From a virus (lineage: Duplodnaviria; Heunggongvirae; Uroviricota; Caudoviricetes), in IMG/VR virus record IMGVR_UViG_2609459792_000013: DNA of 36,682 nt; one strand, 5' to 3'. The notes under the pieces are model-generated. The model saw only the letters and a list, made by a program, of their open reading frames with translations, searched no databases and had not been told where the DNA came from. A program made the translations under genes and the position numbers. Of this stretch, positions 1,054 to 36,395 are shown piece after piece. The number at the start of each line of letters is the position of its first letter. The first letter of the stretch is position 1.

Positions 1054-1239
1054 AAAAAATGCCCTCCAATAGAGAGCATTTTTACTGTATATATAAACAG
1101 TGTCAATGTATGAAATCCTGCGACCATACATCTCACTGAAGCCATAATGAAGTTGGCTATTTTTTGCTATGTGAGTATGTGACTTTTGCGGTTAGCCTGC
1201 GGCTCATTGTTATATTAGGCGCAGATATAAAAGCAAAAT

Positions 1240-1431
1240 TTATCGCGAGTTTTTAGTACAGATTTTTTTTGATTTACTAATAGTTCCATCATTGCAAACG
1301 AACTTTCCATCGGAGGTACAGTGAGAGACACCTCCCTTTTTCCCAGAACAAGGATAATTTTTAGCATAGGTAGTTAGTGGGTTTAATAACAAAGAGCATG
1401 ATAAAACCACAAAAAATACCTTACCAAGCAT
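1240..1431 (-). CDS. Small secreted Cys-rich protein (63 aa) inserted between cI and int; candidate lysogenic-conversion moron
   Basis: N-terminal signal-peptide-like segment [23 protein letters not shown], then a Lys/Cys-rich mature part with 4 Cys. GGGAGG RBS 7 nt upstream of the ATG, directly after the cI stop; region is AT-rich. Confidence 0.6.
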
Positions 1432-1446
1432 AGTTTCCTCCCGGTA

Positions 1447-3946: not shown

Positions 3947-4800
3947 GCACCATCCTGAAATGGGCGGGAAATAAAACTGCCATAATGTCCGAACTGAAAA
4001 AACATCTTCCTGCTGGCCCGCGACTGGTTGAACCTTTCGCGGGTTCCTGTGCTGTGATGATGGAGACGGATTATCCCAGCTATCTGGTTGCGGATATTAA
4101 TCCTGATTTAATCAACCTCTATAAAAAGGTTGCCGCTGATTGTGAATCGTTTATATCTCGCGCCAGAGTTTTATTTGAGATCGCAAACAGGGAGGTGGCT
4201 TATTACAACATAAGGCAGGAGTTTAATTACTCAACTGAAATTACTGATTTCATGAAAGCGGTATATTTCCTGTATCTCAATCGTCACGGTTACCGTGGTT
4301 TATGTCGCTATAACAAGAGCGGGCATTTCAACATTCCCTACGGTAATTATAAAAATCCGTATTTCCCTGAAAAAGAAATTCGCGCATTTGCAGAAAAGGC
4401 CCAGCGAGCAACGTTTATCTGCGCCAGCTTTGATGAAACGCTGGCGATGTTGAAGGCGGGGGATGTGGTGTATTGCGATCCGCCGTATGACGGTACGTTT
4501 TCCGGCTATCACACTGACGGCTTCACTGAAGATGACCAGTATCACCTGGCATCTGTTCTTGAACATCGGTCATCAGAAGGACATCCGGTCATTGTTTCTA
4601 ACAGTGACACATCCCTGATCCGTTCGCTGTATCGCAATTTTACTCACCACTACATCAAGGCAAAACGCAGCATCGGTGTGGCAGCTGGCGAGGGTAAATC
4701 AGCAACAGAAATCATTGCTGTTTCCGGGCCGCGCTGCTGGGTGGGATTTGATTATTCGCGTGGCGTGGATAGTTCTGCCGTGTACGGAGTACGTGCATGA
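3943..4800 (+). CDS. dam: DNA adenine methyltransferase (Dam-like, N6-adenine; probably GATC)
   Basis: ATG at 3943 ([11 protein letters not shown]). Motif [10 protein letters not shown] and motif IV DPPY; long collinear similarity to E. coli Dam as I recall it ([32 protein letters not shown]). Confidence 0.85.
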
Positions 4801-7211
4801 GTCATGCCGATATGAACAACTGCTGCGGCTTTAACGAAGCTGCCGCATCGTTCTCATGGAACAGCCCGAAAAAGGCCATTAACCCTTATCTGGACCCGGT
4901 GGAAGTTGCGCCGGTTTCTACGCTTTCAAACCTGATCACTCTGTATGCTGCCGATAACGAGCAGGAACAGCTGCGCCGTGAGGCGCTGAGTGATCAGGTC
5001 TGGGAGCGTTATTTCTTTAATGAATCCCGTGATCCTGTCCAGCGCGAAATGGAACAGGATAAGCTCATTAGTCGGGCAAAGCTGGCGCATGAGCAGCAGC
5101 GTTTTAATCCGGATATGGTCATTCTGGCGGACGTCAACGCCCAGCCTTCCCATATCAGCAAGCCGCTGATGCAACGTATTGAATACTTCAGCAGCCTGGG
5201 CAGGCCAAAGGCTTATTCCCGCTATTTACGTGAGACGATTAAGCCATGTTTGGAACGACTGGAGCATGTACGCGACAGTCAGCTATCTGCATCTTTTCGC
5301 TTTATGGCAAGCCATGAAGGGCTGGACGGCCTGCTGATCCTGCCTGAAATGAGTCAGGATCAGGTGAAACGCCTGTCCACCTTGGTAGCTGCGCATATGA
5401 GTATGTGCCTTGATGCCGCTTGTGGCGATTTGTATGCCACCGATGACGTTAAGCCAGAAGAAATCCGCAATACATGGGAAAGGGTGGCAGCGGAAACCCT
5501 GCGTCTGGATGTCATCCCGCCTGCGTTTGAGCAACTCCGTCGGAAAAGAAACCGCCGTAAACCCGTGCCCTATGAACTCATTCCGGGTTCGCTGGCGCGT
5601 ATGTTGTGCGCCGACTGGTGGTATCGGAAATTATGGAAGATGCGTTGCGAATGGCGGGAAGAGCAGTTGCGTGCAGTCTGCCTTGTCAGCAAAAAAGCAT
5701 CTCCTTATGTCAGCTATGAAGCCGTGATGCATAAACGTGAGCAGCGCCGTAAGTCGCTGGAGTTTTTCCGTTCTCATGAACTGGTGAACGAAGACGGCGA
5801 CACGCTGGACATGGAGGATGTGGTAAACGCCAGCAGCAGCAACCCAGCGCATCGCCGCAATGAGATGATGGCCTGTGTTAAAGGTCTGGAGCTTATCGCG
5901 GAAATGCGCGGTGACTGCGCCGTTTTCTACACCATCACCTGTCCGTCACGTTTCCATTCCACGCTAAACAACGGCAGGCCCAACCCAACCTGGACAAATG
6001 CGACGGTAAGACAAAGCAGTGATTATCTGGTCGGCATGTTTGCTGCATTTCGTAAGGCGATGCACAAAGCCGGATTGCGGTGGTATGGCGTGCGGGTGGC
6101 TGAGCCGCATCATGACGGTACAGTTCACTGGCACCTGTTGTGTTTTATGCGCAAAAAAGACCGCCGCACCATCACTGCATTACTGCGTAAGTTTGCCATC
6201 CGTGAAGACCGCGAGGAGCTGGGCAATAACACTGGGCCGCGCTTTAAGTCTGAGTTGATTAACCCGCGCAAAGGTACGCCAACAAGCTACATCGCGAAAT
6301 ACATCAGTAAGAACATTGACGGGCGTGGTCTGGCTGGCGAGATCAGCAAGGAAACGGGGAAATCCCTGCGTGATAATGCTGAATACGTTAATGCCTGGGC
6401 GTCTCTGCATCGTGTTCAGCAATTCCGCTTCTTTGGCATTCCGGGGCGTCAGGCTTACCGTGAACTGCGATTGCTGGCTGGTCAGGCGGCAAGGCAACAG
6501 GGGGACAAAAAAGCAGGTGCGCCGGTACTGGATAACCCGCGCCTTGATGCCATTCTGGCTGCTGCTGATGCTGGTTGTTTTGCCACCTACATCATGAAGC
6601 AGGGTGGCGTACTGGTTCCCCGCAAATATCACCTCATCAGAACTGCTTATGAAATCAACGAAGAGCCGACCGCCTATGGCGATCACGGCATTCGTATTTA
6701 TGGCATCTGGTCACCTATTGCAGAGGGCAAGATCTGCACTCATGCCGTGAAGTGGAAAATGGTTCGTAAGGCCGTTGACGTTCAGGAGGCGGCAGCCGAC
6801 CAGGGCGCTTGCGCCCCTTGGACTCGTGGCAATAACTGTCCCCTTGCTGAAAATTTGTACCAACAAGGGAAAGACAAATCAGCTGATGGAGATACCAGAA
6901 CGGATATCACCCGCATGGATGACAAGGAGTTGCACGATTACCTGCACAGTATGAGCAAAAAAGAGCGCCGGGAACTGGCAGCAAGGTTACGCCTGGTGAA
7001 ACCGAAACGGCGTAAAGACTACAAACAACGAATTACAGACCATCAGCGACTGCAGCTCGTGTATGAACTGAAGTCCAGGGGATTTGATGGCAGCGAGAAA
7101 GAGGTCGATTTACTGCTTCGCGGCGGCAGTATTCCGTCAGGAGCAGGCCTGCGTATCTTCTATCGGAACCAGCGTTTGCAGGAAGATGATAAGTGGCGAA
7201 ACCTGTATTAA
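4797..7211 (+). CDS. A: Rolling-circle replication initiator (P2 gpA-like)
   Basis: 804 aa; HUH-type motif [10 protein letters not shown] and Y-x3-Y active-site pair (YIAKY), as in P2 A. Start overlaps the Dam stop. Confidence 0.85.
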
Positions 7212-7303: not shown

Positions 7304-7323
7304 TACTGTAAATATAAACAGTG
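7304..7323 (+). promoter_or_regulatory. LexA (SOS) box overlapping a candidate promoter
   Basis: TACTGTAAATATAAACAGTG is a perfect CTGT-N8-ACAG with AT-rich spacer (CTGT 7306-7309, ACAG 7318-7321). -35 TTTACA (7281-7286) and, 17 bp later, -10 TACTGT (7304-7309) overlap it; AGGAGG RBS and ATG at 7364 follow. Confidence 0.65.
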
Positions 7324-7598: not shown

Positions 7599-7722
7599 GG
7601 TCAACTAAGGATTGAAACAGAAAGCCCTTGAAAACAGTAGCAAGTTGCCTATTATCTACGCTGTATTTAATCGATGTCATTGGCTGTAATACCTTAAGTG
7701 ATATTGAAAGGCGGTGTGGGGA

Positions 7723-8883
7723 ATGGATCTGGCTAAAGTTGAAGAACGCGTCCGAAGAGTCATAGGGACAATGGAGTCTGCCGAGCTTGATGAATATTTT
7801 TGGGGTAAGCGCTCGGGTTTGGGAGACTCATTACCTCCGTATTATCTCGTTTATTTTCTTTTGGTAGATTTACTGAAATTTAAAAATCGTGGGGTTGATG
7901 AGAAGATTTCTTTTTCTATCCCAGTCCGGATTGATGGGACTGTCGTAATTATAGAACATCGTAAACTTGGTTTAGATATATTTATCAAGAGTGATGATGA
8001 TATAGAGCAAGCTAAAACTGTTTTGAGACATATTTGCGCAGGGGTTAAAGCTGCTACGAAATTTTTTGACTCGCTTGCAGACAATGCAGCAAAGACTTCA
8101 AATCTAAATGTTAATAACAATGCTAATTCTCTTTATGATAGGTTTTGCTATTTTTTAGAGCTATATAAACAGAAGCTTGATGAAGTTGCTGCTGGCCAAG
8201 AGTCTAAACTGGAAGTTGATAGTGAGTTTAAGTCTGATAATTTTTTCAGCCTGTTACAATCCACTTTTGAACAATCAAATAAGATAATTGAACTCCGAAG
8301 AGAGGCTATGTGGTTAGCAACGTCTGCAATTGAGTCATTTTTCAATTGGACCGAGCATGTTTTCATTCTTATTGCAATCTTGAAGGGTGAGATAAAAAAT
8401 GGGAATGATGTGGCTGATAAAGTTGGGAAAGAATGGGGGGAGAAATTCAAATTAGCCATTGATATTAACTCTTCCAGTCTAAAATCATTCTATGAACGTT
8501 TACTTATACTCAGAAAACAGGTGCGTAATTTTGTAGCCCATGGCGCCTTCGGTAAGGATGGGCAAGCATTGGAATTTCACTCAAGTGTAGGGGCTGTGCC
8601 ACTATTGCTGCCTCATCGAGAAAATAAAGAACGTTTCAAGTTTGGAAATGGTGTACATTTTTTGGCACCTGAAGCAATGCAATTAATTAACGATTTTCTT
8701 GAAAATTTGTGGCAGGGAGAACTGTCCCCAGCAAAAATTTATATTGAATCTGGATGTCCTTTAATACTATCTTACGTAACTAATGGAACCTATGCGGAGG
8801 CGATGAAATCAGAAAGGAATATGGACTTATTGGTTAATTACTTAACTCGTGAGATGGATAATGCCGCAAACATGGATTGGTAA
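7723..8883 (+). CDS. Cargo protein (387 aa), unknown function; candidate HEPN-like nuclease (R-N-x3-H motif)
   Basis: Long AT-rich ORF (ATG 7723; track start 7714 is a GTG) in the P2 tin/old slot. Motif LRKQVRNFVAHG matches the HEPN Rx4-6H signature; no Walker A motif seen. Confidence 0.75.
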   Translation: MDLAKVEERVRRVIGTMESAELDEYFWGKRSGLGDSLPPYYLVYFLLVDLLKFKNRGVDEKISFSIPVRIDGTVVIIEHRKLGLDIFIKSDDDIEQAKTVLRHICAGVKAATKFFDSLADNAAKTSNLNVNNNANSLYDRFCYFLELYKQKLDEVAAGQESKLEVDSEFKSDNFFSLLQSTFEQSNKIIELRREAMWLATSAIESFFNWTEHVFILIAILKGEIKNGNDVADKVGKEWGEKFKLAIDINSSSLKSFYERLLILRKQVRNFVAHGAFGKDGQALEFHSSVGAVPLLLPHRENKERFKFGNGVHFLAPEAMQLINDFLENLWQGELSPAKIYIESGCPLILSYVTNGTYAEAMKSERNMDLLVNYLTREMDNAANMDW

Positions 8884-9554: not shown

Positions 9555-10241
9555 ATGGTTAAATTTAATAATAACTTTGATTTTCCATTGGTAACAATAC
9601 TGACGGTGTTGCTATTTATATTGGCATATTTTTTTAAACTTGGTGAGGCCGTTTATTTTGGTTATCCAGCAATACTTATATCATTAGATTTAACGAGTGT
9701 TGCGAATATTTCTTTAAAGCTTTTTTTCTATTTTGGTAGTATTGTTATAGGTGTTTTTAATTTTATTTTGAATGATGGTGCGATTAAACTTAATAAAATT
9801 AAGTATGTTCTTTGGATTTTTATTGCCATAACAATATTTTCAGTTTTTTTAAGTTTTAAGAGGGGGGAGAAAGACTTAGTTAACTATCTTAATGGTGGTC
9901 TTTTTGGTATTTGTTCATGGTTGGTGGTAATGTCGTTGTTCAAAACATTTGAACGAAGTGGTGATTTGATTAATATAGATTTCGTATATGCCATATTAAC
10001 GGTTTTCTTTATGTCAGTTACTAGTTTTCTTGGAGGGATTAATTATCATAATCAGTTTGCATCTGTTCTATGGAAAACCTTGGATGGAAAAATAGTAGTT
10101 GGAGAATATAACGGCAGTTTTGTTTTAAAGAAATGCGTAGATGGCAAAGGGGTTTTTAGCTTTAGAGAGGTAAATGGTAGCGAATTTGTTGAGGTTGTAA
10201 ATTATGTGGAAGGGAAGTTTAATCCAAGGTGCAATAGATAA
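9555..10241 (+). CDS. Cargo membrane protein (228 aa), about five TM helices plus a roughly 60-aa C-terminal soluble domain
   Basis: Hydrophobic stretches LVTILTVLLFILAYFF, ISLKLFFYFGSIVIGVFNFIL, YVLWIFIAITIFSVFLSF, LFGICSWLVVMSLF, FVYAILTVFFMSVTSFLGGI; very AT-rich; ends 25 bp before the convergent Q stop. Confidence 0.7.
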   Translation: MVKFNNNFDFPLVTILTVLLFILAYFFKLGEAVYFGYPAILISLDLTSVANISLKLFFYFGSIVIGVFNFILNDGAIKLNKIKYVLWIFIAITIFSVFLSFKRGEKDLVNYLNGGLFGICSWLVVMSLFKTFERSGDLINIDFVYAILTVFFMSVTSFLGGINYHNQFASVLWKTLDGKIVVGEYNGSFVLKKCVDGKGVFSFREVNGSEFVEVVNYVEGKFNPRCNR

Positions 10242-10266: not shown

Positions 10267-11298
10267 TTATTCAAGTTTGTAGGCGTCAAAACTGATAACA
10301 GTTTTACCTAACCATATATTCAATTCTTCAAATCTTTTTTGCAATGATGTTAGTTCATTTCTTACAAAAACATTACTCGCCTTCTCCACATCCCCAAACC
10401 CTCCAACATTATTAGGCATAATCCCCATCATTTGCGGCGGCACGCGGTGCGCAGCCATCATGTCATCCCGGCTCACGTTCTTGATATTCAAAAATTCATC
10501 CTTTGCCGCGACTTCTGACAGAGGAATAATCTGAAGCCCGTCCTTTTTGCCGTTAGGCGAGTACATAAACAGGTTGCGGAAGTTGCCTGGACCTTTGGCG
10601 CTTTTCATCGCGTTGCGGAGGTTGTTCACATCTTCCTGGTTCTGCGCGGCGTCGGTCATATACATGATGAAGCCAGCATGACTGCCGTTAATGTAATACT
10701 TTCGACGGAACAGCGTGGCGGACTCATTGAGCAGGGCGGACGGAATGGCAGAAAGATAGCCGGGCAAGCCGTAGATCTCCTGGTTAATGTCCGGTTCCAT
10801 CAGATGAAAAATGCTGCCTTTCGTGAACTGATATGGCTGGGTTGTCATACCGTATTGCACAAACCAGTAGGTATCCAAGTCTAACCCGCGTCGGGTGTAT
10901 TTTGCCAGCGCAGGCTCAAGGGCGATAACTTCACCGAAGCGGTTCGTGCGTTTCTCCAAGTAGGCGTTACCAAAAACCAAATAGTCCTGCACAAAACGCG
11001 AAAAAGCCTGCTGGCTGAGCAGCGGGTGAGGGATGTAGGTGCTGGTCAAAATATTGCATTTCACCGCAATCGGTGAGCTGTGATGCACGGCGGCGCGGAA
11101 GGTTCGTGCCAGCCCGTCAAAGCTGACGGGCGGCTCATACCAGCGATCCATCTGTACGCATTCCACATAGTCCAGCAGTTCGCGGCGGTCCAGAACAGGA
11201 ACGGGATCACCGAAGCTGAATGCTTCGGCTGAAGTCTGGCTTTTATGCTGGTTCTGGTTCGTCGACGCAGCGCGGTTCTTCTTACTCTTTCCCATCAA
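10267..11298 (-). CDS. Q: Portal protein (P2 gpQ-like)
   Basis: 343 aa, recalled P2 Q similarity; operon with P on the minus strand, start overlapping the P stop. Confidence 0.85.
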   Translation of the reverse strand: MMGKSKKNRAASTNQNQHKSQTSAEAFSFGDPVPVLDRRELLDYVECVQMDRWYEPPVSFDGLARTFRAAVHHSSPIAVKCNILTSTYIPHPLLSQQAFSRFVQDYLVFGNAYLEKRTNRFGEVIALEPALAKYTRRGLDLDTYWFVQYGMTTQPYQFTKGSIFHLMEPDINQEIYGLPGYLSAIPSALLNESATLFRRKYYINGSHAGFIMYMTDAAQNQEDVNNLRNAMKSAKGPGNFRNLFMYSPNGKKDGLQIIPLSEVAAKDEFLNIKNVSRDDMMAAHRVPPQMMGIMPNNVGGFGDVEKASNVFVRNELTSLQKRFEELNIWLGKTVISFDAYKLE

Positions 11299-18656: not shown

Positions 18657-20408
18657 CTATTGGTTGAATATGAAGCTGATAATATTTTCAGGAGTGAGCT
18701 CTATGTTTTTTTTATTAAGTTTTTGAATGTACATTTTATATTTCATTTCAACGTTTCGGAAGCCTTGCGCAACAGAAAGTATTTCTACAGGATGAGATGA
18801 AAGTTTTATTAAGGAGTTAATGACTGTATCTAGGTAGATGTGAGCATGTTCAACTAAAACATTTGTTTTTGATGGGGTTTTTCCAGTGTGAACTATCAAG
18901 TTTCTAGTTCTATATATTCTCCTAATTTGCCAGTTGATTCTTTCTGCATGATTTTTAAGTGCCTGATACATAGTATCAGTTGAGGAAATTAAATTGCTAA
19001 TATATTCAAATCTCTCTTTCAATAACGGAAATTGTGATAGTTCTATCTTAAACTGATTGATGCTAGGGGCATGTTCTTGCGAAGCAACAAGAATTACAAA
19101 TGATTTGGCTGCATCGCTATCTCCAATTAGTCTTAGAAGTGACATGGTTCGAGGATGATTCCATCGTTGTAAGTCTTTTATAAGATTCCTTACTAGGTCT
19201 TCAATATAATTCAGGTTTAAAAATGGTGTTAATGAATTAACGATATGTTCTATCGTGGATTGTTCTTCTTTTTTTGATTCGTCGGGGATGAGTGATTCAA
19301 TAGCAATCCATAAATTTAAAAGCTGATTTTCTACAGCATTTGTCTGTAGTGCCATTGAATGTAATTGTACACTTCTTATGAATTTATTGAAAGAATCCTT
19401 GCGCATTCTGAAATTATTCATGAATTGTTCGAGTCTTCTGCTTGCGTGTTCCTGAACCAGATCCTTGCAGCGGTGCATTGGGTTTATGCTGCTTCTTATA
19501 TTGATTTTTTCACCATTTTCACTAACTACAATGTTCTCTGCAGACCATGATGCTTCTTGCTTATGATGATAGAGAGAAAGCAAAGTTGATGCGAGCTTTA
19601 AGTTTCTTTCAGCTACCCTTCTAGCCGTGAATGGATCAAGTGCTTTAACATGCTTAACTAAAATAGTTCGTTGTTCATGATTATCGAAGAAATCTGTTTC
19701 ATTAATATTTTCGGGGGTTTCAAGAACAACCTCAATTTCTAATTGTGATAAGCATGGAGTAATATAACTAAAAGATTTGTCAGCATTGAAATAAACTGAA
19801 TATTCTTGTGTCTCTGAGGGGATGTTCTCTAGGAATGTAATAATCTCTTCATTTGAACTGATCTCTCGTTCTCTTTGGAAGAAATGTTTTTTTAGACTTT
19901 CCATCAAATATTCTTGACTTAATCCTTTTGATATTAGATGGGTAATCAACAGTCTTGTAAACTTTCGAATTTTATTTGGGTTGTATTCTGAAGTTATTGT
20001 AGAGCAAAGTTCACTGATGAGTTTGCTTTCATAATTACCAACATTAAGTTGAACTCTCAGTAATTCAAGAGTTATTTTTAGATTTTTATTTCCTAACTGA
20101 TTGTTTTGGAGTTGATCTAAAAATGAACCTAAAGGGTTTTTTAGAAGACTGATTGCGATGTCATCATTCTTAATATTTTTAGTTAATTCGTCAATGACGT
20201 GGGATATATGTGCGGGGCTTATGTTGCCTTTTTCTATATCATCGATTGTTGATATTGCTTCTATACATAAACTTGGAGTGTTCATTATAGAAGGTTTATA
20301 TGTACTATGGGTGTAATCAAAGAGAAGTTCCTCCATTAACTCGGTGAAATAAATAAGCGCAGTGCATTGTTCAATATGATTCCAGTTGTGTAGTCTTCTA
20401 AATTTCAT
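18657..20408 (-). CDS. Cargo protein (583 aa) antisense to the late operon in the S-V moron slot; candidate HEPN-like abortive-infection protein
   Basis: Very AT-rich ORF; ATG at 20408 (MKFRRLHNWNH...). The track TTG start at 20528 would overlap gpV and is rejected. C-terminal motif IRRIYRTRNLIVHTGK matches R-N-x3-H-x-G; no Walker A motif. Confidence 0.8.
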   Translation of the reverse strand: MKFRRLHNWNHIEQCTALIYFTELMEELLFDYTHSTYKPSIMNTPSLCIEAISTIDDIEKGNISPAHISHVIDELTKNIKNDDIAISLLKNPLGSFLDQLQNNQLGNKNLKITLELLRVQLNVGNYESKLISELCSTITSEYNPNKIRKFTRLLITHLISKGLSQEYLMESLKKHFFQREREISSNEEIITFLENIPSETQEYSVYFNADKSFSYITPCLSQLEIEVVLETPENINETDFFDNHEQRTILVKHVKALDPFTARRVAERNLKLASTLLSLYHHKQEASWSAENIVVSENGEKINIRSSINPMHRCKDLVQEHASRRLEQFMNNFRMRKDSFNKFIRSVQLHSMALQTNAVENQLLNLWIAIESLIPDESKKEEQSTIEHIVNSLTPFLNLNYIEDLVRNLIKDLQRWNHPRTMSLLRLIGDSDAAKSFVILVASQEHAPSINQFKIELSQFPLLKERFEYISNLISSTDTMYQALKNHAERINWQIRRIYRTRNLIVHTGKTPSKTNVLVEHAHIYLDTVINSLIKLSSHPVEILSVAQGFRNVEMKYKMYIQKLNKKNIELTPENIISFIFNQ

Positions 20409-20452
20409 ATTAATACCTTGTTTTGTGAAGCTTGAATTTACCTTTAGCGCAT

Positions 20453-20470
20453 TGTTTGTTGCTTCATACA
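20453..20470. promoter_or_regulatory. TGT-N12-ACA dyad between the cargo gene and V (late-promoter activator site candidate)
   Basis: TGTTTGTTGCTTCATACA, with flanking extended symmetry TGTTTG...CAAACA. Centre is 55.5 bp from the V ATG (20517) and 53.5 bp from the cargo ATG (20408). Confidence 0.45.
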
Positions 20471-20516
20471 AACATGGTTTGTTTGTGATCTCAAGTGTTT
20501 GATTAAGAATTTGAGA

Positions 20517-21095
20517 ATGAACGTACAACTCACGGAAATCATGCGCCTTATCACCAATCTGATCCGCACAGGGGTAGTCACCGAAGTGGACCGGGAAAAC
20601 TGGCTTTGCAGGGTGAAAACGGGCGAGCTTGAAACCAACTGGATCAGCTGGCTGACGCTACGTGCCGGAAATGCCCGGACATGGTGGCGACCATCGGAAG
20701 GTGAGCAGGTGGTGCTGCTGAGTCTGGGCGGCAATCTGGAGACCGCCTTTGCGCTGCCCGCTGTCTATTCGAATCAGTTCGCACCACCGTCGACGTCGGC
20801 GGACGCCTGCGTGACAGAACATCCTGACGGTGGCTGGTTTGAATACGAACCCGCCACCGGGCGCTGGTATGTCAGGGGCATCAAATCAATGGTCATTGAG
20901 GCCGCTGACAACATCACCCTGAAAACCAGTGAGTTTGTACTGGAGGCTGACCGCACGCGCATTAACAGTGAAGTGGTGATCAATGGTGGAGTTACCCAGG
21001 GCGGCGGAGCGATGAGTTCTAACGGGATCGTGGTTGATGCGCATCAGCATACTGGCGTCCTGAAAGGCGGCGATACAACCGGAGGCCCGGTATGA
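20517..21095 (+). CDS. V: Baseplate spike protein (gpV-like)
   Basis: N-terminus MNVQLTEIMRLITNLIRTGVVTEVD resembles recalled P2 V; an alternative start at 20541 is possible. Confidence 0.8.
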   Translation: MNVQLTEIMRLITNLIRTGVVTEVDRENWLCRVKTGELETNWISWLTLRAGNARTWWRPSEGEQVVLLSLGGNLETAFALPAVYSNQFAPPSTSADACVTEHPDGGWFEYEPATGRWYVRGIKSMVIEAADNITLKTSEFVLEADRTRINSEVVINGGVTQGGGAMSSNGIVVDAHQHTGVLKGGDTTGGPV

Positions 21096-34062: not shown

Positions 34063-35748
34063 TTATCCTAATCCTGGCCATACCATGACGATGATTGTCC
34101 CTGCCAGCGTCAGCAGGACGTTGGCGATTGCGTAGGTGCCCGCATAGCCCAGCGCAGGGATGTTACTGCGAGCTGTATCACTGATGATCTCCATTGCCGG
34201 CGCGCAGGTGCGTGCGCCCATCATTGCGCCGAACAACAGTGCGCGGTTCATTCGCAATACATAAGCACCGAACAAGAAACAGATAACCACGGGCACAAGA
34301 CTGACAATTAATCCGGCAATCAACATCTGACCGCCAATCGCGCCCAGGCCGTTATTAATACCGCTACCGGCGCTCAGACCAACGCCTGCCATAAACACCA
34401 TCAAGCCGAACTCTTTCACCATGCTTAATGCACCTTGCGGAATGTAACCGAAGGTCGGGTGGTTAGCACGCATAAAGCCCAGCATAATTCCGGCGAATAA
34501 CAACCCGGCAGCGTTCCCCATGCCGAAACTGAATGTGCTGAACTGGAAGGTGATCATCCCGATCATCAGCCCAATAACAAAGAAGGCGCAAAATGCCAGC
34601 AGGTCAGTGACCTGGCTGTGAATCGAGATAAAGCCGATGCGATCGGCGATGGTTTTTACGCGACGGGCATCACCGCTGACTTGTAAAACGTCACCTTTGT
34701 TAAGCACGACGTTGTCATCTATCGGCATCTCAATCTGGCTACGAATGACGCGGTTAAGGAAGCAACCGTGATCGGTCAACTTCAGTTGTGCGAGACGTTT
34801 ACCTACAGCGTTATGGTTTTTAACGACCACTTCTTCAGTGACGATACGCATGTCGAGAAGGTCACGATCGAAAACTTCTTTACCGTTACGGAAGCTGGGA
34901 TCGAGTCGGGCATGGGCGTCGGGATAGCCTACCAACGCTATTTCATCGCCCATTTGTAGCACGGCATCACCGTCTGGATTTGCCAGAATCCCGTTACGTC
35001 GAATACGTTCAATGTAGCAGCCGGTTTGTCGATAAATACCCAGTTCACGCAGATTTTTGCCGTCGGTCCAGGCCACCAGCTCCGGGCCGACGCGATAGGC
35101 GCGGATCACCGGTAAATAAACCTTACGGTTGGCATCAGTGTCCAGGCCACGTTCGCGGGCGATTTGCTGGGCGCTGGTCTGTAAGTCCTGATGCTGCAAT
35201 TTCGGCAAGTAACGCGCACCAACAATCAAACTCACCAGACCGATTAAATAGGTTAAGGCATACCCGAGGCTCAGATTATCCAGTGCCAGTGAGAGCTGCC
35301 TGCTTTCCATGCCGAAATGACGCAGTGTATCGCCAGCACCGACCAGAACCGGTGTCGACGTCATAGAGCCTGCTAACATACCGGCCGTCAGGCCAATATC
35401 CCAGCCAAACAGCTTACCTAACCCTAAGGCGATCACCAGCGCACTGCCAACCATCACCAGTGCTAACATTAGGTAATTTTTCCCATCGCGAAAAAAAATG
35501 GAAAAAAAGTTCGGTCCGGCTTCGACCCCGACGCAGAAAATAAACAGCATAAAGCCAAGATTAAGCGCATCGGTGTTAATGCTGAAATGTTGTTGGCCTA
35601 ATAACAGCGATACGACTAAAACGCCAATGGAATTACCCAGTTGGATCGAACCAAGTCGTAACTTTCCGAGACATAGCCCAAGCGCGAGGACCACAAATAA
35701 TAACAGAATGTAATTCCCATTTAACAATTCGGCGACGTTTATATTCAC
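34063..35748 (-). CDS. ybjL: Putative transport protein YbjL-like (AAE-family membrane transporter), host gene
   Basis: 561 aa, multi-TM with a central soluble TrkA-C-like region; length and sequence match my recollection of E. coli YbjL. Confidence 0.8.
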
Positions 35749-36017
35749 GGAGGCTAACTTCTTGTTTACTAGTAAGCTGTTGAAAGAAATGGTAATTTAC
35801 GATAATGTTTTTTACCAGAATTCAGGGCGCAGATTCATTCAGCGCACCTAAACGATAGTAAAGTAACAATATATTTTACTAGTGTAATCACATTAGGTAT
35901 CAACGGCTATATGAATTGCGTTGGCCTATATTAGCATGGAATGCGAAGCGGCTTTATCTTACTGAACGCCACACTGGCGAAAAATGTGTTCGATAGACGC
36001 AGTGTCAGGAGGAACGA

Positions 36018-36395
36018 GTGAAACATAAACAACGTTGGGCGGGGGCAATCTGCTGTTTTGTCCTCTTCATTGTGGTGTGCCTTTTTCTGGCGACGCACAT
36101 GAAAGGCGCTTTTCGGGCTGCCGGGCATCCTGAAATCGGCTTGCTATTTTTCATTCTTCCTGGAGCAGTTGCCAGTTTCTTTTCACAGCGTAGAGAAGTC
36201 CTGAAACCTCTATTTGGCGCAATGCTGGCGGCACCCTGTTCAATGCTCATTATGCGGCTGTTTTTTTCACCGACGCGCTCATTCTGGCAAGAGCTGGCAT
36301 GGTTACTAAGCGCGGTGTTCTGGTGTGCGCTGGGGGCACTGTGTTTCTTATTTATCAGTAGTTTGTTTAAACCACAGCACAGAAAAAATCAGTAA
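36018..36395 (+). CDS. ybjM: Inner membrane protein YbjM-like, host gene
   Basis: 125 aa, GTG start with GGAGG RBS; four hydrophobic helices; adjacent to grxA as in E. coli. Confidence 0.75.
   Translation: MKHKQRWAGAICCFVLFIVVCLFLATHMKGAFRAAGHPEIGLLFFILPGAVASFFSQRREVLKPLFGAMLAAPCSMLIMRLFFSPTRSFWQELAWLLSAVFWCALGALCFLFISSLFKPQHRKNQ

Follow-up and report, generated by a model that had tools for sequence, protein, structure and literature searches.

A YdcA family gene behind the immunity repressor of a 186-like prophage: a predicted periplasmic peptide with probable kinship to Legionella Dis2

What does a 63-codon gene placed directly behind the immunity repressor of a 186-like prophage encode, and what might its product do for the lysogen? 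The question is raised by a 36,682-nucleotide stretch of viral DNA (Caudoviricetes; IMG/VR record IMGVR_UViG_2609459792_000013), which as a whole is called the window here. In it, an open reading frame (ORF) occupies positions 1240-1431 on the minus strand, a strand that the initial annotation had left unstated. The ORF is almost certainly a prophage-borne member of the YdcA family (PF27300, PRK10040 group, PHROG 6000), as judged from profile matches. The explanation that we favour overall, with moderate confidence, is that its product would be a periplasmic YdcA binding module made by the lysogen, co-expressed with the repressor gene cI as cargo of a genomic hotspot.

The assignment to the family rests on several independent models. 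The ORF comprises 63 codons and a stop at 1242-1240, and its coordinates in the ORF list are identical to those of the RefSeq coding sequence (CDS) WP_001321204.1, "YdcA family protein". The NCBIfam model NF007463 (PRK10040/YdcA) matches residues 5-63 over model positions 1-58 of 58 with 116.1 bits against a cut-off of 93, and PHROG 6000, an uncharacterised family of phage proteins, matches residues 3-59 over profile positions 1-56 of 56 (E 4.6e-34). The Pfam family PF27300 "YdcA" is precomputed on a 97%-identical cluster representative and on the homologues from the same genomic slot; the Pfam copy that was scanned predates this family, and its match to GULLO2-like_3rd (E 0.068, sub-threshold) was rejected as noise. 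The equivalog model for ydcA of E. coli K-12, NF007462, was not reached (68 bits against a cut-off of 118), and by these scores the window protein is a member of a paralogous YdcA subfamily and not the orthologue of b1419. The initial annotation had not recognised the peptide, which is thus not a novelty as such: the exact protein is already in RefSeq, in a public cluster of 355 members found on more than 1000 contigs. Of 5426 complete E. coli genomes, 654 carry the gene at the DNA level, among them ATCC 8739, HS, NC101 and APEC O78, and 1135 carry the associated integrase type.

The names attached to the cluster are "hypothetical protein", "YdcA family protein" and, in UniRef, "Conjugal transfer protein". 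The last of these was compared with plasmid tra loci, and the copy on plasmid p3ABAYE of Acinetobacter baumannii is not among tra genes; its neighbours are hypothetical genes, a toxin-antitoxin pair and a BRO gene. A Citrobacter plasmid copy, likewise checked as a possible source of the name, lies in a type VI secretion system (T6SS) cluster. The "ydcA" of the Neisseria gonococcal island and that of Bacillus probably share the name by coincidence, as we assume. The DUF3761 motif (C-x-D-G-T-x-S-x-S...C-S-x-H-G-G-V) may resemble a permuted YdcA motif.

That the ORF is more than a chance reading frame follows from the matches to curated family models together with its pattern of synonymous and non-synonymous substitution. 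Nine synonymous changes and no non-synonymous ones separate the mature part from that of the E. coli HS allele (93% DNA identity). Comparisons with the other E. coli prophage, Yersinia, HP2, Moraxella and K-12-type copies yield a non-synonymous divergence (dN) of 0.04-0.21 for the mature part, at saturated synonymous divergence, and a dN of 0.6-1.2 for the signal-peptide part. Since the synonymous sites are saturated and dN is low, the conservation of the amino acids reflects selection and not recent transfer. Among 27 full-length homologues, the invariant residues are Ala23, P27, C28, S29, K32, G33, G34, C38, F44, C46, D48, G49, S52, S54, K55 and C58, and the pre-sequences are unalignable in detail. 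The four cysteines are invariant also in 106 diverse domain sequences, with the pattern C-x9-C-x7-C-x11-C. A frame so short and AT-rich, with a cationic and Cys-rich product, may nevertheless look like a spurious ORF or like an exported, defensin-like antimicrobial peptide. The former is excluded by the curated hidden Markov model (HMM) matches and by the strong purifying selection; the latter would have neither a route of export across the outer membrane nor a neighbouring immunity or processing gene, and it belongs to a family that is widespread as single chromosomal genes. We regard this pair of readings as extremely unlikely.

The N-terminus, residues 1-23 (1363-1431, minus strand), is predicted to be a classical Sec signal peptide cleaved by signal peptidase I, a heuristic call based on the hydrophobicity profile, the statistics of the family at positions -3 and -1, and dN. 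It contains K4, a hydrophobic core of 12 residues and a putative cleavage site T-Y-A, with K following. In the family, the predicted -1 residue is Ala in 140 of 193 members and the -3 residue is A, T, S or V in 161; K or R occurs within the first eight residues in 91% of the 193, and the median uncharged run is 13. The proposal of a secreted product therefore holds up, supported as it is by these features and by a fast-evolving pre-sequence set against a near-invariant mature part, and we consider export with cleavage very likely. The pre-protein would be exported through Sec and then cut by signal peptidase I after Ala23.

One variant of export would leave the product on a membrane: if Cys12, in V-L-S-C, were lipidated, a membrane-anchored product of 52 residues would result. 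The stretch VVLSC resembles a relaxed lipobox, and one UniRef entry for a Yersinia homologue is named "Lipoprotein". However, Cys12 is only 11 residues from the N-terminus, the PROSITE lipobox rule places the Cys at positions 15-35, the hydrophobic core (SLLLNPL) continues beyond it, and L at -2 is atypical. Moreover, Cys12 is not conserved, any Cys being found in only 39% of pre-sequences, whereas an A-x-A-type site before N-Y-P-C is conserved. With a lipobox that is non-canonical and not kept in the family, we rejected the lipoprotein reading as very unlikely.

The mature peptide, residues 24-63 (1243-1362, minus strand), has 40 residues, a mass of 4.27 kDa and a pI of 9.64, with eight Lys, one Arg and four Cys (C28, C38, C46 and C58), in agreement with the Lys- and Cys-rich mature part of about 40 residues described initially. 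Its core YdcA domain spans N25-T59. YdcA-family domains have a mean net charge of +3.6, and several of their Lys residues are conserved. AlphaFold2, run without templates on the domain by itself, gives a confident model (pLDDT 85.9) with a short helical turn and a beta-hairpin. When this model was searched with Foldseek against the PDB, the top match was chain AN of 7MUC/7MUD, i.e., Dis2 (Lpg0823) of the Legionella type IV secretion system (T4SS) Dot/Icm, with a probability of 0.97, a query TM of 0.71, a root-mean-square deviation of 1.6 A and 42% identity over 36 columns. All other matches had probabilities of 0.10 or less, and the full-length model gave the same top match. At the sequence level, Dis2 is matched with E 2.8e-4 when the signal peptide is included and E 0.15 when it is not; a two-domain member of the YdcA family (P0081) matches Dis2 in pairwise BLASTP with E 2e-7 and 5e-6. 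Homology between YdcA and Dis2 is thus probable, as far as the sequence matches and the predicted model allow. Dis2 itself, which was published as Legionellales-specific and without structural relatives, appears from the comparison with P0081 and P0082 to be a tandem YdcA-like protein. The invariant cysteines, the predicted export and the analogy to Dis2, whose fold is pinned by disulfides (PMC8486379), together suggest a disulfide-bonded periplasmic fold. In the periplasm, the strongly basic 40-residue peptide would fold as a small knot around a beta-hairpin, and its four invariant cysteines probably pair in two disulfides that hold it together.

The position of the gene is as telling as its product. 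The 186-type CI immunity repressor is encoded at 1447-2016 on the minus strand (PF07022, E 2.8e-33; PF16452, E 2e-28; RefSeq), the RefSeq start being at 2016 and the longest ORF beginning at a GTG at 2022, and the P2/186-type tyrosine integrase (start MAVRK; PF24624 and PF00589; RefSeq CDS) at 1-1053 on the same strand. RefSeq annotates the same three CDS, cI, ydcA and int, in E. coli chromosomes, beside rcdA/ybjJ. The cI stop (1449-1447) and the ATG of the ORF (1431-1429) leave a spacer of 15 nt (1432-1446, minus strand), which bears the Shine-Dalgarno sequence GGGAGG (1442-1437) 5 nt ahead of the ATG. No terminator-like site is found in this spacer on the minus strand, and it is too short for one. 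The G+C content (GC) of 1051-1500 is 0.31-0.37, and that of int and the lytic genes 0.45-0.55; the AT-richness of the ydcA region is matched by that of the C-terminal half of cI. The ORF, its ribosome-binding site (RBS), its distance from cI and the AT-rich patch are therefore all as first described.

In phage 186, the stop of cI overlaps the start of int, so the slot between them is empty there, whereas about 390 bp separate cI and int in the window; an insertion into the lysogenic operon, as initially suggested, is borne out by this comparison. The same slot carries different cargo in different relatives. A variant E. coli prophage has a YdcA that is 70% identical and bears another signal peptide, with a KAP_NTPase gene next to it on the int side; phage vB_EcoM-813R9 has a 1.7-kb "ATPase", Klebsiella phage 4LV2017 has a 1-kb hypothetical gene, and Yersinia 186-like prophages have YdcA, as does the window. 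In the Haemophilus phages HP2 and S2, a 60-residue YdcA, whose ATG overlaps the cI stop, is followed by the secreted orf1(S). The HP2 ORF (L001, NC_003315; 2920-3102, corresponding to 2486-2668 on the reverse strand of the record) is situated between cI and orf1(S); the reference annotation lacks it. The search for homologues at this slot in relatives, which had been proposed as a check, thus succeeded in the E. coli variant, in Yersinia and in HP2. A cargo hotspot between cI and the integrase has been described for K139-like relatives of P2 (PMC9122126), and a minor "integrase-primase" hotspot for P2-like prophages (PMC13586616). Gene, family and hotspot are already catalogued, and the architecture is the ordinary one of a moron co-expressed with the repressor.

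The KAP-family P-loop NTPase gene between YdcA and int in E. coli (L004-L008, 6198-7529) has a possible counterpart in Yersinia, where a faint KAP_NTPase match lies just beyond int (L012, 6651-8207). These genes that accompany YdcA are probably defence cargo.

How the gene would be expressed can be read from its junctions on both sides. The record of phage 186 shows pL/pE driving a lysogenic operon cI-int-orf69. With a spacer of 15 nt, a strong RBS and no terminator, ydcA is expected to be co-transcribed with cI, and their co-expression we hold to be likely, with good confidence. The gene would be translated from the pL/pE-type lysogenic mRNA of cI, and its product would be made continuously in lysogens. 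On the other side, a hairpin of 13 bp with a U-run (1055-1083, minus strand; -17.5 kcal/mol, z -5.7) ends 1 nt before the int ATG, which is at 1053, and includes the int RBS, GGAGGG. A promoter-like element, TTGACA-17-AAAAAT, precedes int at 1078-1106 (minus strand; 10/12 in the promoter scan), and its spacer holds a LexA box (1083-1102) with two mismatches to the consensus, where 0.00 would be expected by chance. About 90 nt ahead of int are conserved whatever the cargo, for which reason this leader is assigned to the int module. In prophages with other cargo, the hairpin is kept with different stem sequences, i.e., by compensatory changes. It is likely that the hairpin serves as a terminator and RBS-occluding element against read-through from cI-ydcA. 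Such read-through would be terminated or translationally silenced there, and transcripts from the SOS-controlled promoter, which lack the 5' arm of the hairpin, would express int.

Because hairpin and LexA-boxed promoter precede int, the lysogenic transcript may consist of cI and ydcA only. This suggests that int is shielded from the lysogenic transcript and inducible by SOS, in contrast to phage 186. The initial annotation had placed the ORF inside a cI-int operon: the linkage of cI and ydcA stands, and the inclusion of int probably does not. A second LexA-box match, with three mismatches, occurs at 7304-7323 on the plus strand, just past the replication gene A (4797-7211). We take this to be the position of the LexA-repressed tum promoter of phage 186, and the site is probably the SOS antirepressor promoter of the prophage.

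The context of the family was surveyed at 80 species-level genome loci from Alpha-, Beta- and Gammaproteobacteria. The 186-type layout, with cI upstream and int downstream, was found at about 7 of the 80. At about 10 further loci, an XRE/S24-type repressor lies upstream on the same strand, with no or one intervening ORF, often exported; these come from Comamonas, Hydrogenophaga, Aquabacterium, Iodobacter, Oceanisphaera and Kingella. In Comamonas testosteroni, an S24-type repressor is followed by a lipoprotein-like ORF and then by YdcA, with a 4-nt overlap, and Ogr- and gpD-like genes are near. The layout of repressor and then YdcA, seen at about 17 of 78 species-level loci, involves three types of repressor in all. 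Phage-borne copies also occur in naturally competent hosts, namely Haemophilus, Moraxella and Acinetobacter. When the neighbours at the 80 loci were clustered all against all, no non-phage partner gene emerged as conserved; orf1(S) of HP2 and the downstream neighbour of ydcA in Moraxella bovoculi, considered as a common partner, proved unrelated to each other. From this distribution, YdcA is best described as a cellular family that P2-family prophages appear to have captured repeatedly and set behind the immunity repressor.

The company that the domain keeps elsewhere is more varied. A profile search of 1.84 billion representatives returned 459 clusters at E <= 1e-3, in which some proteins have two or three tandem copies. 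Long members consist of a signal peptide, the YdcA domain, a linker and a nuclease domain (e.g., P0110, P0147, P0176, P0171, P0208 and L149). The nuclease is SNase (PF00565, E 4.8e-24), Endonuclease_NS (PF01223, up to E 8e-33, and E 7e-35 on a Crenothrix contig, L149 1732-2655) or the PLD-like nuclease PLDc_2 (PF13091, E 5e-19); a fusion to HNH is weak. In one metagenome-assembled genome, an unfused SNase gene lies directly downstream of YdcA (L182 4213-4902). A further fusion joins YdcA to the T6SS VasL domain (P0111), and a plasmid of Citrobacter sp. TSA-1 encodes a 133-residue YdcA-domain protein (L186, 4926-5327) within a T6SS cluster, tssA-F-G-J-E, with a GIY-YIG nuclease gene next after YdcA and a VasL-domain protein further downstream. 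Copies in Providencia carry Lys-rich repeats. In Betaproteobacteria, a second Cys domain is found, C-x-C-R-x5-C-T-G-P-R-G-G-x-Y-C...K-S-Y (Comamonas L144 3926-4348 and L150 3986-4348; P0056-P0062, P0107), which in Comamonas suwonensis (L144) scores 21.2 bits against the PBCV_basic_adap (PF08789) cut-off of 20.4 and in P0107 17.1, below it. A recurrent linkage of YdcA and nucleases was not met in the literature searched.

That three unrelated nuclease folds share one N-terminal module argues that the module supplies either binding of the substrate or another polyanion, or localisation in the periplasm. Elsewhere, then, the YdcA domain would be a small periplasmic adaptor or binding module of secreted nucleases, of T6SS loci and probably of the lobes of Dis2; from this behaviour it follows that it may bind a conserved, probably anionic, ligand of the envelope or of nucleic-acid type.

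Taken to one end, this would make the window product a peptide of the periplasm that binds DNA and holds it back in transit, be it by transformation, conjugation or phage ejection, and so protects the prophage from curing or competitors. The three fusions above their Pfam cut-offs, and possibly the HNH one, speak for it, as do the nuclease neighbours at L182 and L186, the basic domain with its conserved Lys, the Lys-rich or "basic adaptor" tails in Providencia and Comamonas, and the copies borne by phages of competent hosts; moreover, attacks of mobile genetic elements on transforming DNA within the periplasm have been described (PMC12378983). However, no DNA-binding fold was recognised, Dis2 is a protein-bound accessory subunit and not a DNA binder, E. 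coli is usually not naturally competent, and the fusions may merely tether enzymes. The DNA ejected by phages is, in addition, normally shielded in the periplasm. We consider DNA sequestration improbable as the function.

Taken to the other end, the module would be an adaptor close to the outer membrane, which docks on a secretin, a T4SS or T6SS, or a porin and masks or disables a structure on which competitors rely, such as a phage receptor or a conjugation partner. Here, the pertinent evidence is Dis2, the sole credible fold match, with its pairwise matches to P0081 and its location: Dis2 adjoins the outer membrane and is present in 13 copies (PMC8486379). The VasL fusion, the copy in the T6SS cluster and the UniRef name "Conjugal transfer protein" point the same way. 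Against docking stand the absence of T4SS and T6SS genes from the window, the marginal significance of the sequence match once the signal peptide is left out, the lack of a conserved partner beside the stand-alone genes, and the finding that Dis2 is dispensable, with subtle phenotypes only (PMC12716638). Its probability is low.

Returning to the lysogen-made periplasmic binding module that we favour, an accessory function that acts at the envelope and benefits the lysogen is likely. The most likely pay-off would be interference with incoming DNA or phage, like that of Glo, a non-homologous periplasmic protein of the vibriophage K139; specifically the exclusion of incoming DNA or phage, which draws on this analogy, we entertain only tentatively and hold to be somewhat unlikely. 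The most specific combination, in which YdcA would be a periplasmic binder of nucleic acids, polyanions or envelope machines, homologous to the lobes of Dis2, that constantly fills the periplasm of lysogens and there blocks incoming foreign DNA, whether from superinfecting phage, transformation or conjugation, is quite unlikely. If it were true, entry-exclusion factors would gain a new class of very small size, which P2-family prophages of Beta- and Gammaproteobacteria have repeatedly placed behind the repressor.

Several observations weigh against the preferred explanation. At about 60 of 78 species-level loci, the gene is an ordinary one of the chromosome with no phage around it; most members being chromosomal, the ancestral role is a cellular one, which may have nothing to do with phage or DNA. 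A tblastn search with the ORF gave no match to a Vibrio phage even at E <= 10, i.e., no sign of homology to Glo, and PADLOC-DB v2 gave no match of the ORF to a defence protein at E <= 0.001. The sole reported phenotypes of K-12-type ydcA are induction by acid and sensitivity to 3-hydroxypropionate (PMC7642389), which fit envelope stress better than exclusion. A minority of members carry the nuclease fusions, and anchoring rather than DNA binding could account for them. Lastly, we infer, rather than observe, export, disulfides, expression and function alike.

In another reading, that of lysogenic conversion, which the initial annotation had raised, the product would be a host-fitness factor, with the same periplasmic role as chromosomal ydcA in tolerance of acid or organic-acid stress and with no action on DNA or phage. 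K-12-type ydcA is reportedly controlled by YdcI, with induction at pH 5, and E. coli W from which it is deleted is sensitive to 300 mM 3-hydroxypropionate (PMC7642389); the predominance of chromosomal members fits, as does the closeness of the phage copy to the K-12-type one in the mature peptide (dN 0.16). However, E. coli already has a chromosomal ydcA, to which a second copy would add only dosage or constitutive expression. The reading also leaves unexplained the placement behind three kinds of repressor and the associations with nucleases and secretion systems, and what has been published on the phenotype is one growth assay without a mechanism. We judge a pure host-fitness role to be rather unlikely. 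The exclusion, host-fitness, DNA-sequestration and docking readings overlap in part.

Whichever applies, the locus ties YdcA to the repressor of a prophage in about 12% of complete E. coli genomes and under extreme purifying selection, in an arrangement that has been re-invented with three repressor types in three bacterial orders. In the literature searched, we found neither the linkage of repressor and YdcA across P2-family prophages, nor the associations with nucleases and T6SS, nor the relationship to Dis2. The fusions, the T6SS links and the kinship with Dis2 supply concrete and cheap hypotheses, and a 4-kDa peptide can be synthesised chemically. If the protein were an entry-exclusion or DNA-binding factor, this would provide a function for a widespread "y-gene" family and for Dis2-like lobes.

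The rest of the window contains further candidate cargo. On the minus strand of the late-gene block, opposite to the genes around it, a 623-residue ORF (18657-20528) matches ApeA in PADLOC (E 2.9e-12) and has no Pfam match; it is likely to be cargo directed against phages, at the place where P2-like phages have their tail-gene hotspot. The interval from gene A/tum to the portal gene (10267-11298, minus strand), which is the classical P2 defence hotspot, holds as further cargo two plus-strand ORFs, 7714-8883 (389 residues) and 9555-10241 (228 residues); Pfam and PADLOC gave no match for either. Towards the right end, host genes encode an Asp-Al_Ex/TrkA_C permease (34063-35748, minus strand) and YbjM (36018-36395, plus strand). 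With host genes at 34063-36395, the right end of the prophage lies before about 34000; on the left, int adjoins rcdA/ybjJ in related genomes.

Among the closest known systems is YdcA of E. coli K-12 (b1419), a protein of 57 residues with a signal sequence that is predicted to be periplasmic and whose function is unknown (bioRxiv 10.1101/2024.02.12.579971). The family and the window protein have in common a signal peptide of about 20-26 residues, a domain of about 35 residues with four invariant Cys, and a motif that begins P-C-S-G-x-K-G-G-[IV]-S-H-C. The K-12 gene, however, lies at the trg-ydcA-cybB locus and the window copy in a prophage behind cI, where a lysogenic phage promoter would be expected in place of control by YdcI and acid (PMC7642389). 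YdcA and Dis2 have in common the motif C-[CS]-x-K-x-G-G-I-x-x-C...V-C-N-[ND]-G-x-x-S, and Dis2 also has a signal peptide and is a disulfide-pinned periplasmic protein (PMC8486379). In contrast to the window product, Dis2 is part of a T4SS, whereas the window is a 186-like prophage flanked by host genes and holds no T4SS genes.

Among phage systems, rexAB of lambda exemplifies the superinfection-exclusion genes expressed with the repressor, and bor and lom of lambda exemplify the classical prophage morons. Like them, the window gene is an accessory gene of foreign base composition (GC 0.31-0.37) with predicted co-expression in the lysogen, and phage 186, which has no ydcA, indicates that the gene is dispensable for the phage cycle. 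The sequences are unrelated, however, and the lambda products are membrane proteins or lipoproteins, whereas a soluble 4-kDa peptide is predicted here. The arrangement in K139, a Vibrio cholerae phage of the P2 family, is a parallel: glo occupies the same slot between cI and int, in the order pL, cI, (orf2), glo and int, on the lysogenic strand and with an exported product. The record annotates Glo as "periplasmic protein; involved in phage exclusion", and it is small, soluble and made in lysogens (PMC3952083). With a CDS of 414 nt, it is nevertheless about three times larger than YdcA; the two have in common the slot, the strand and the export of their products, which for YdcA is predicted.

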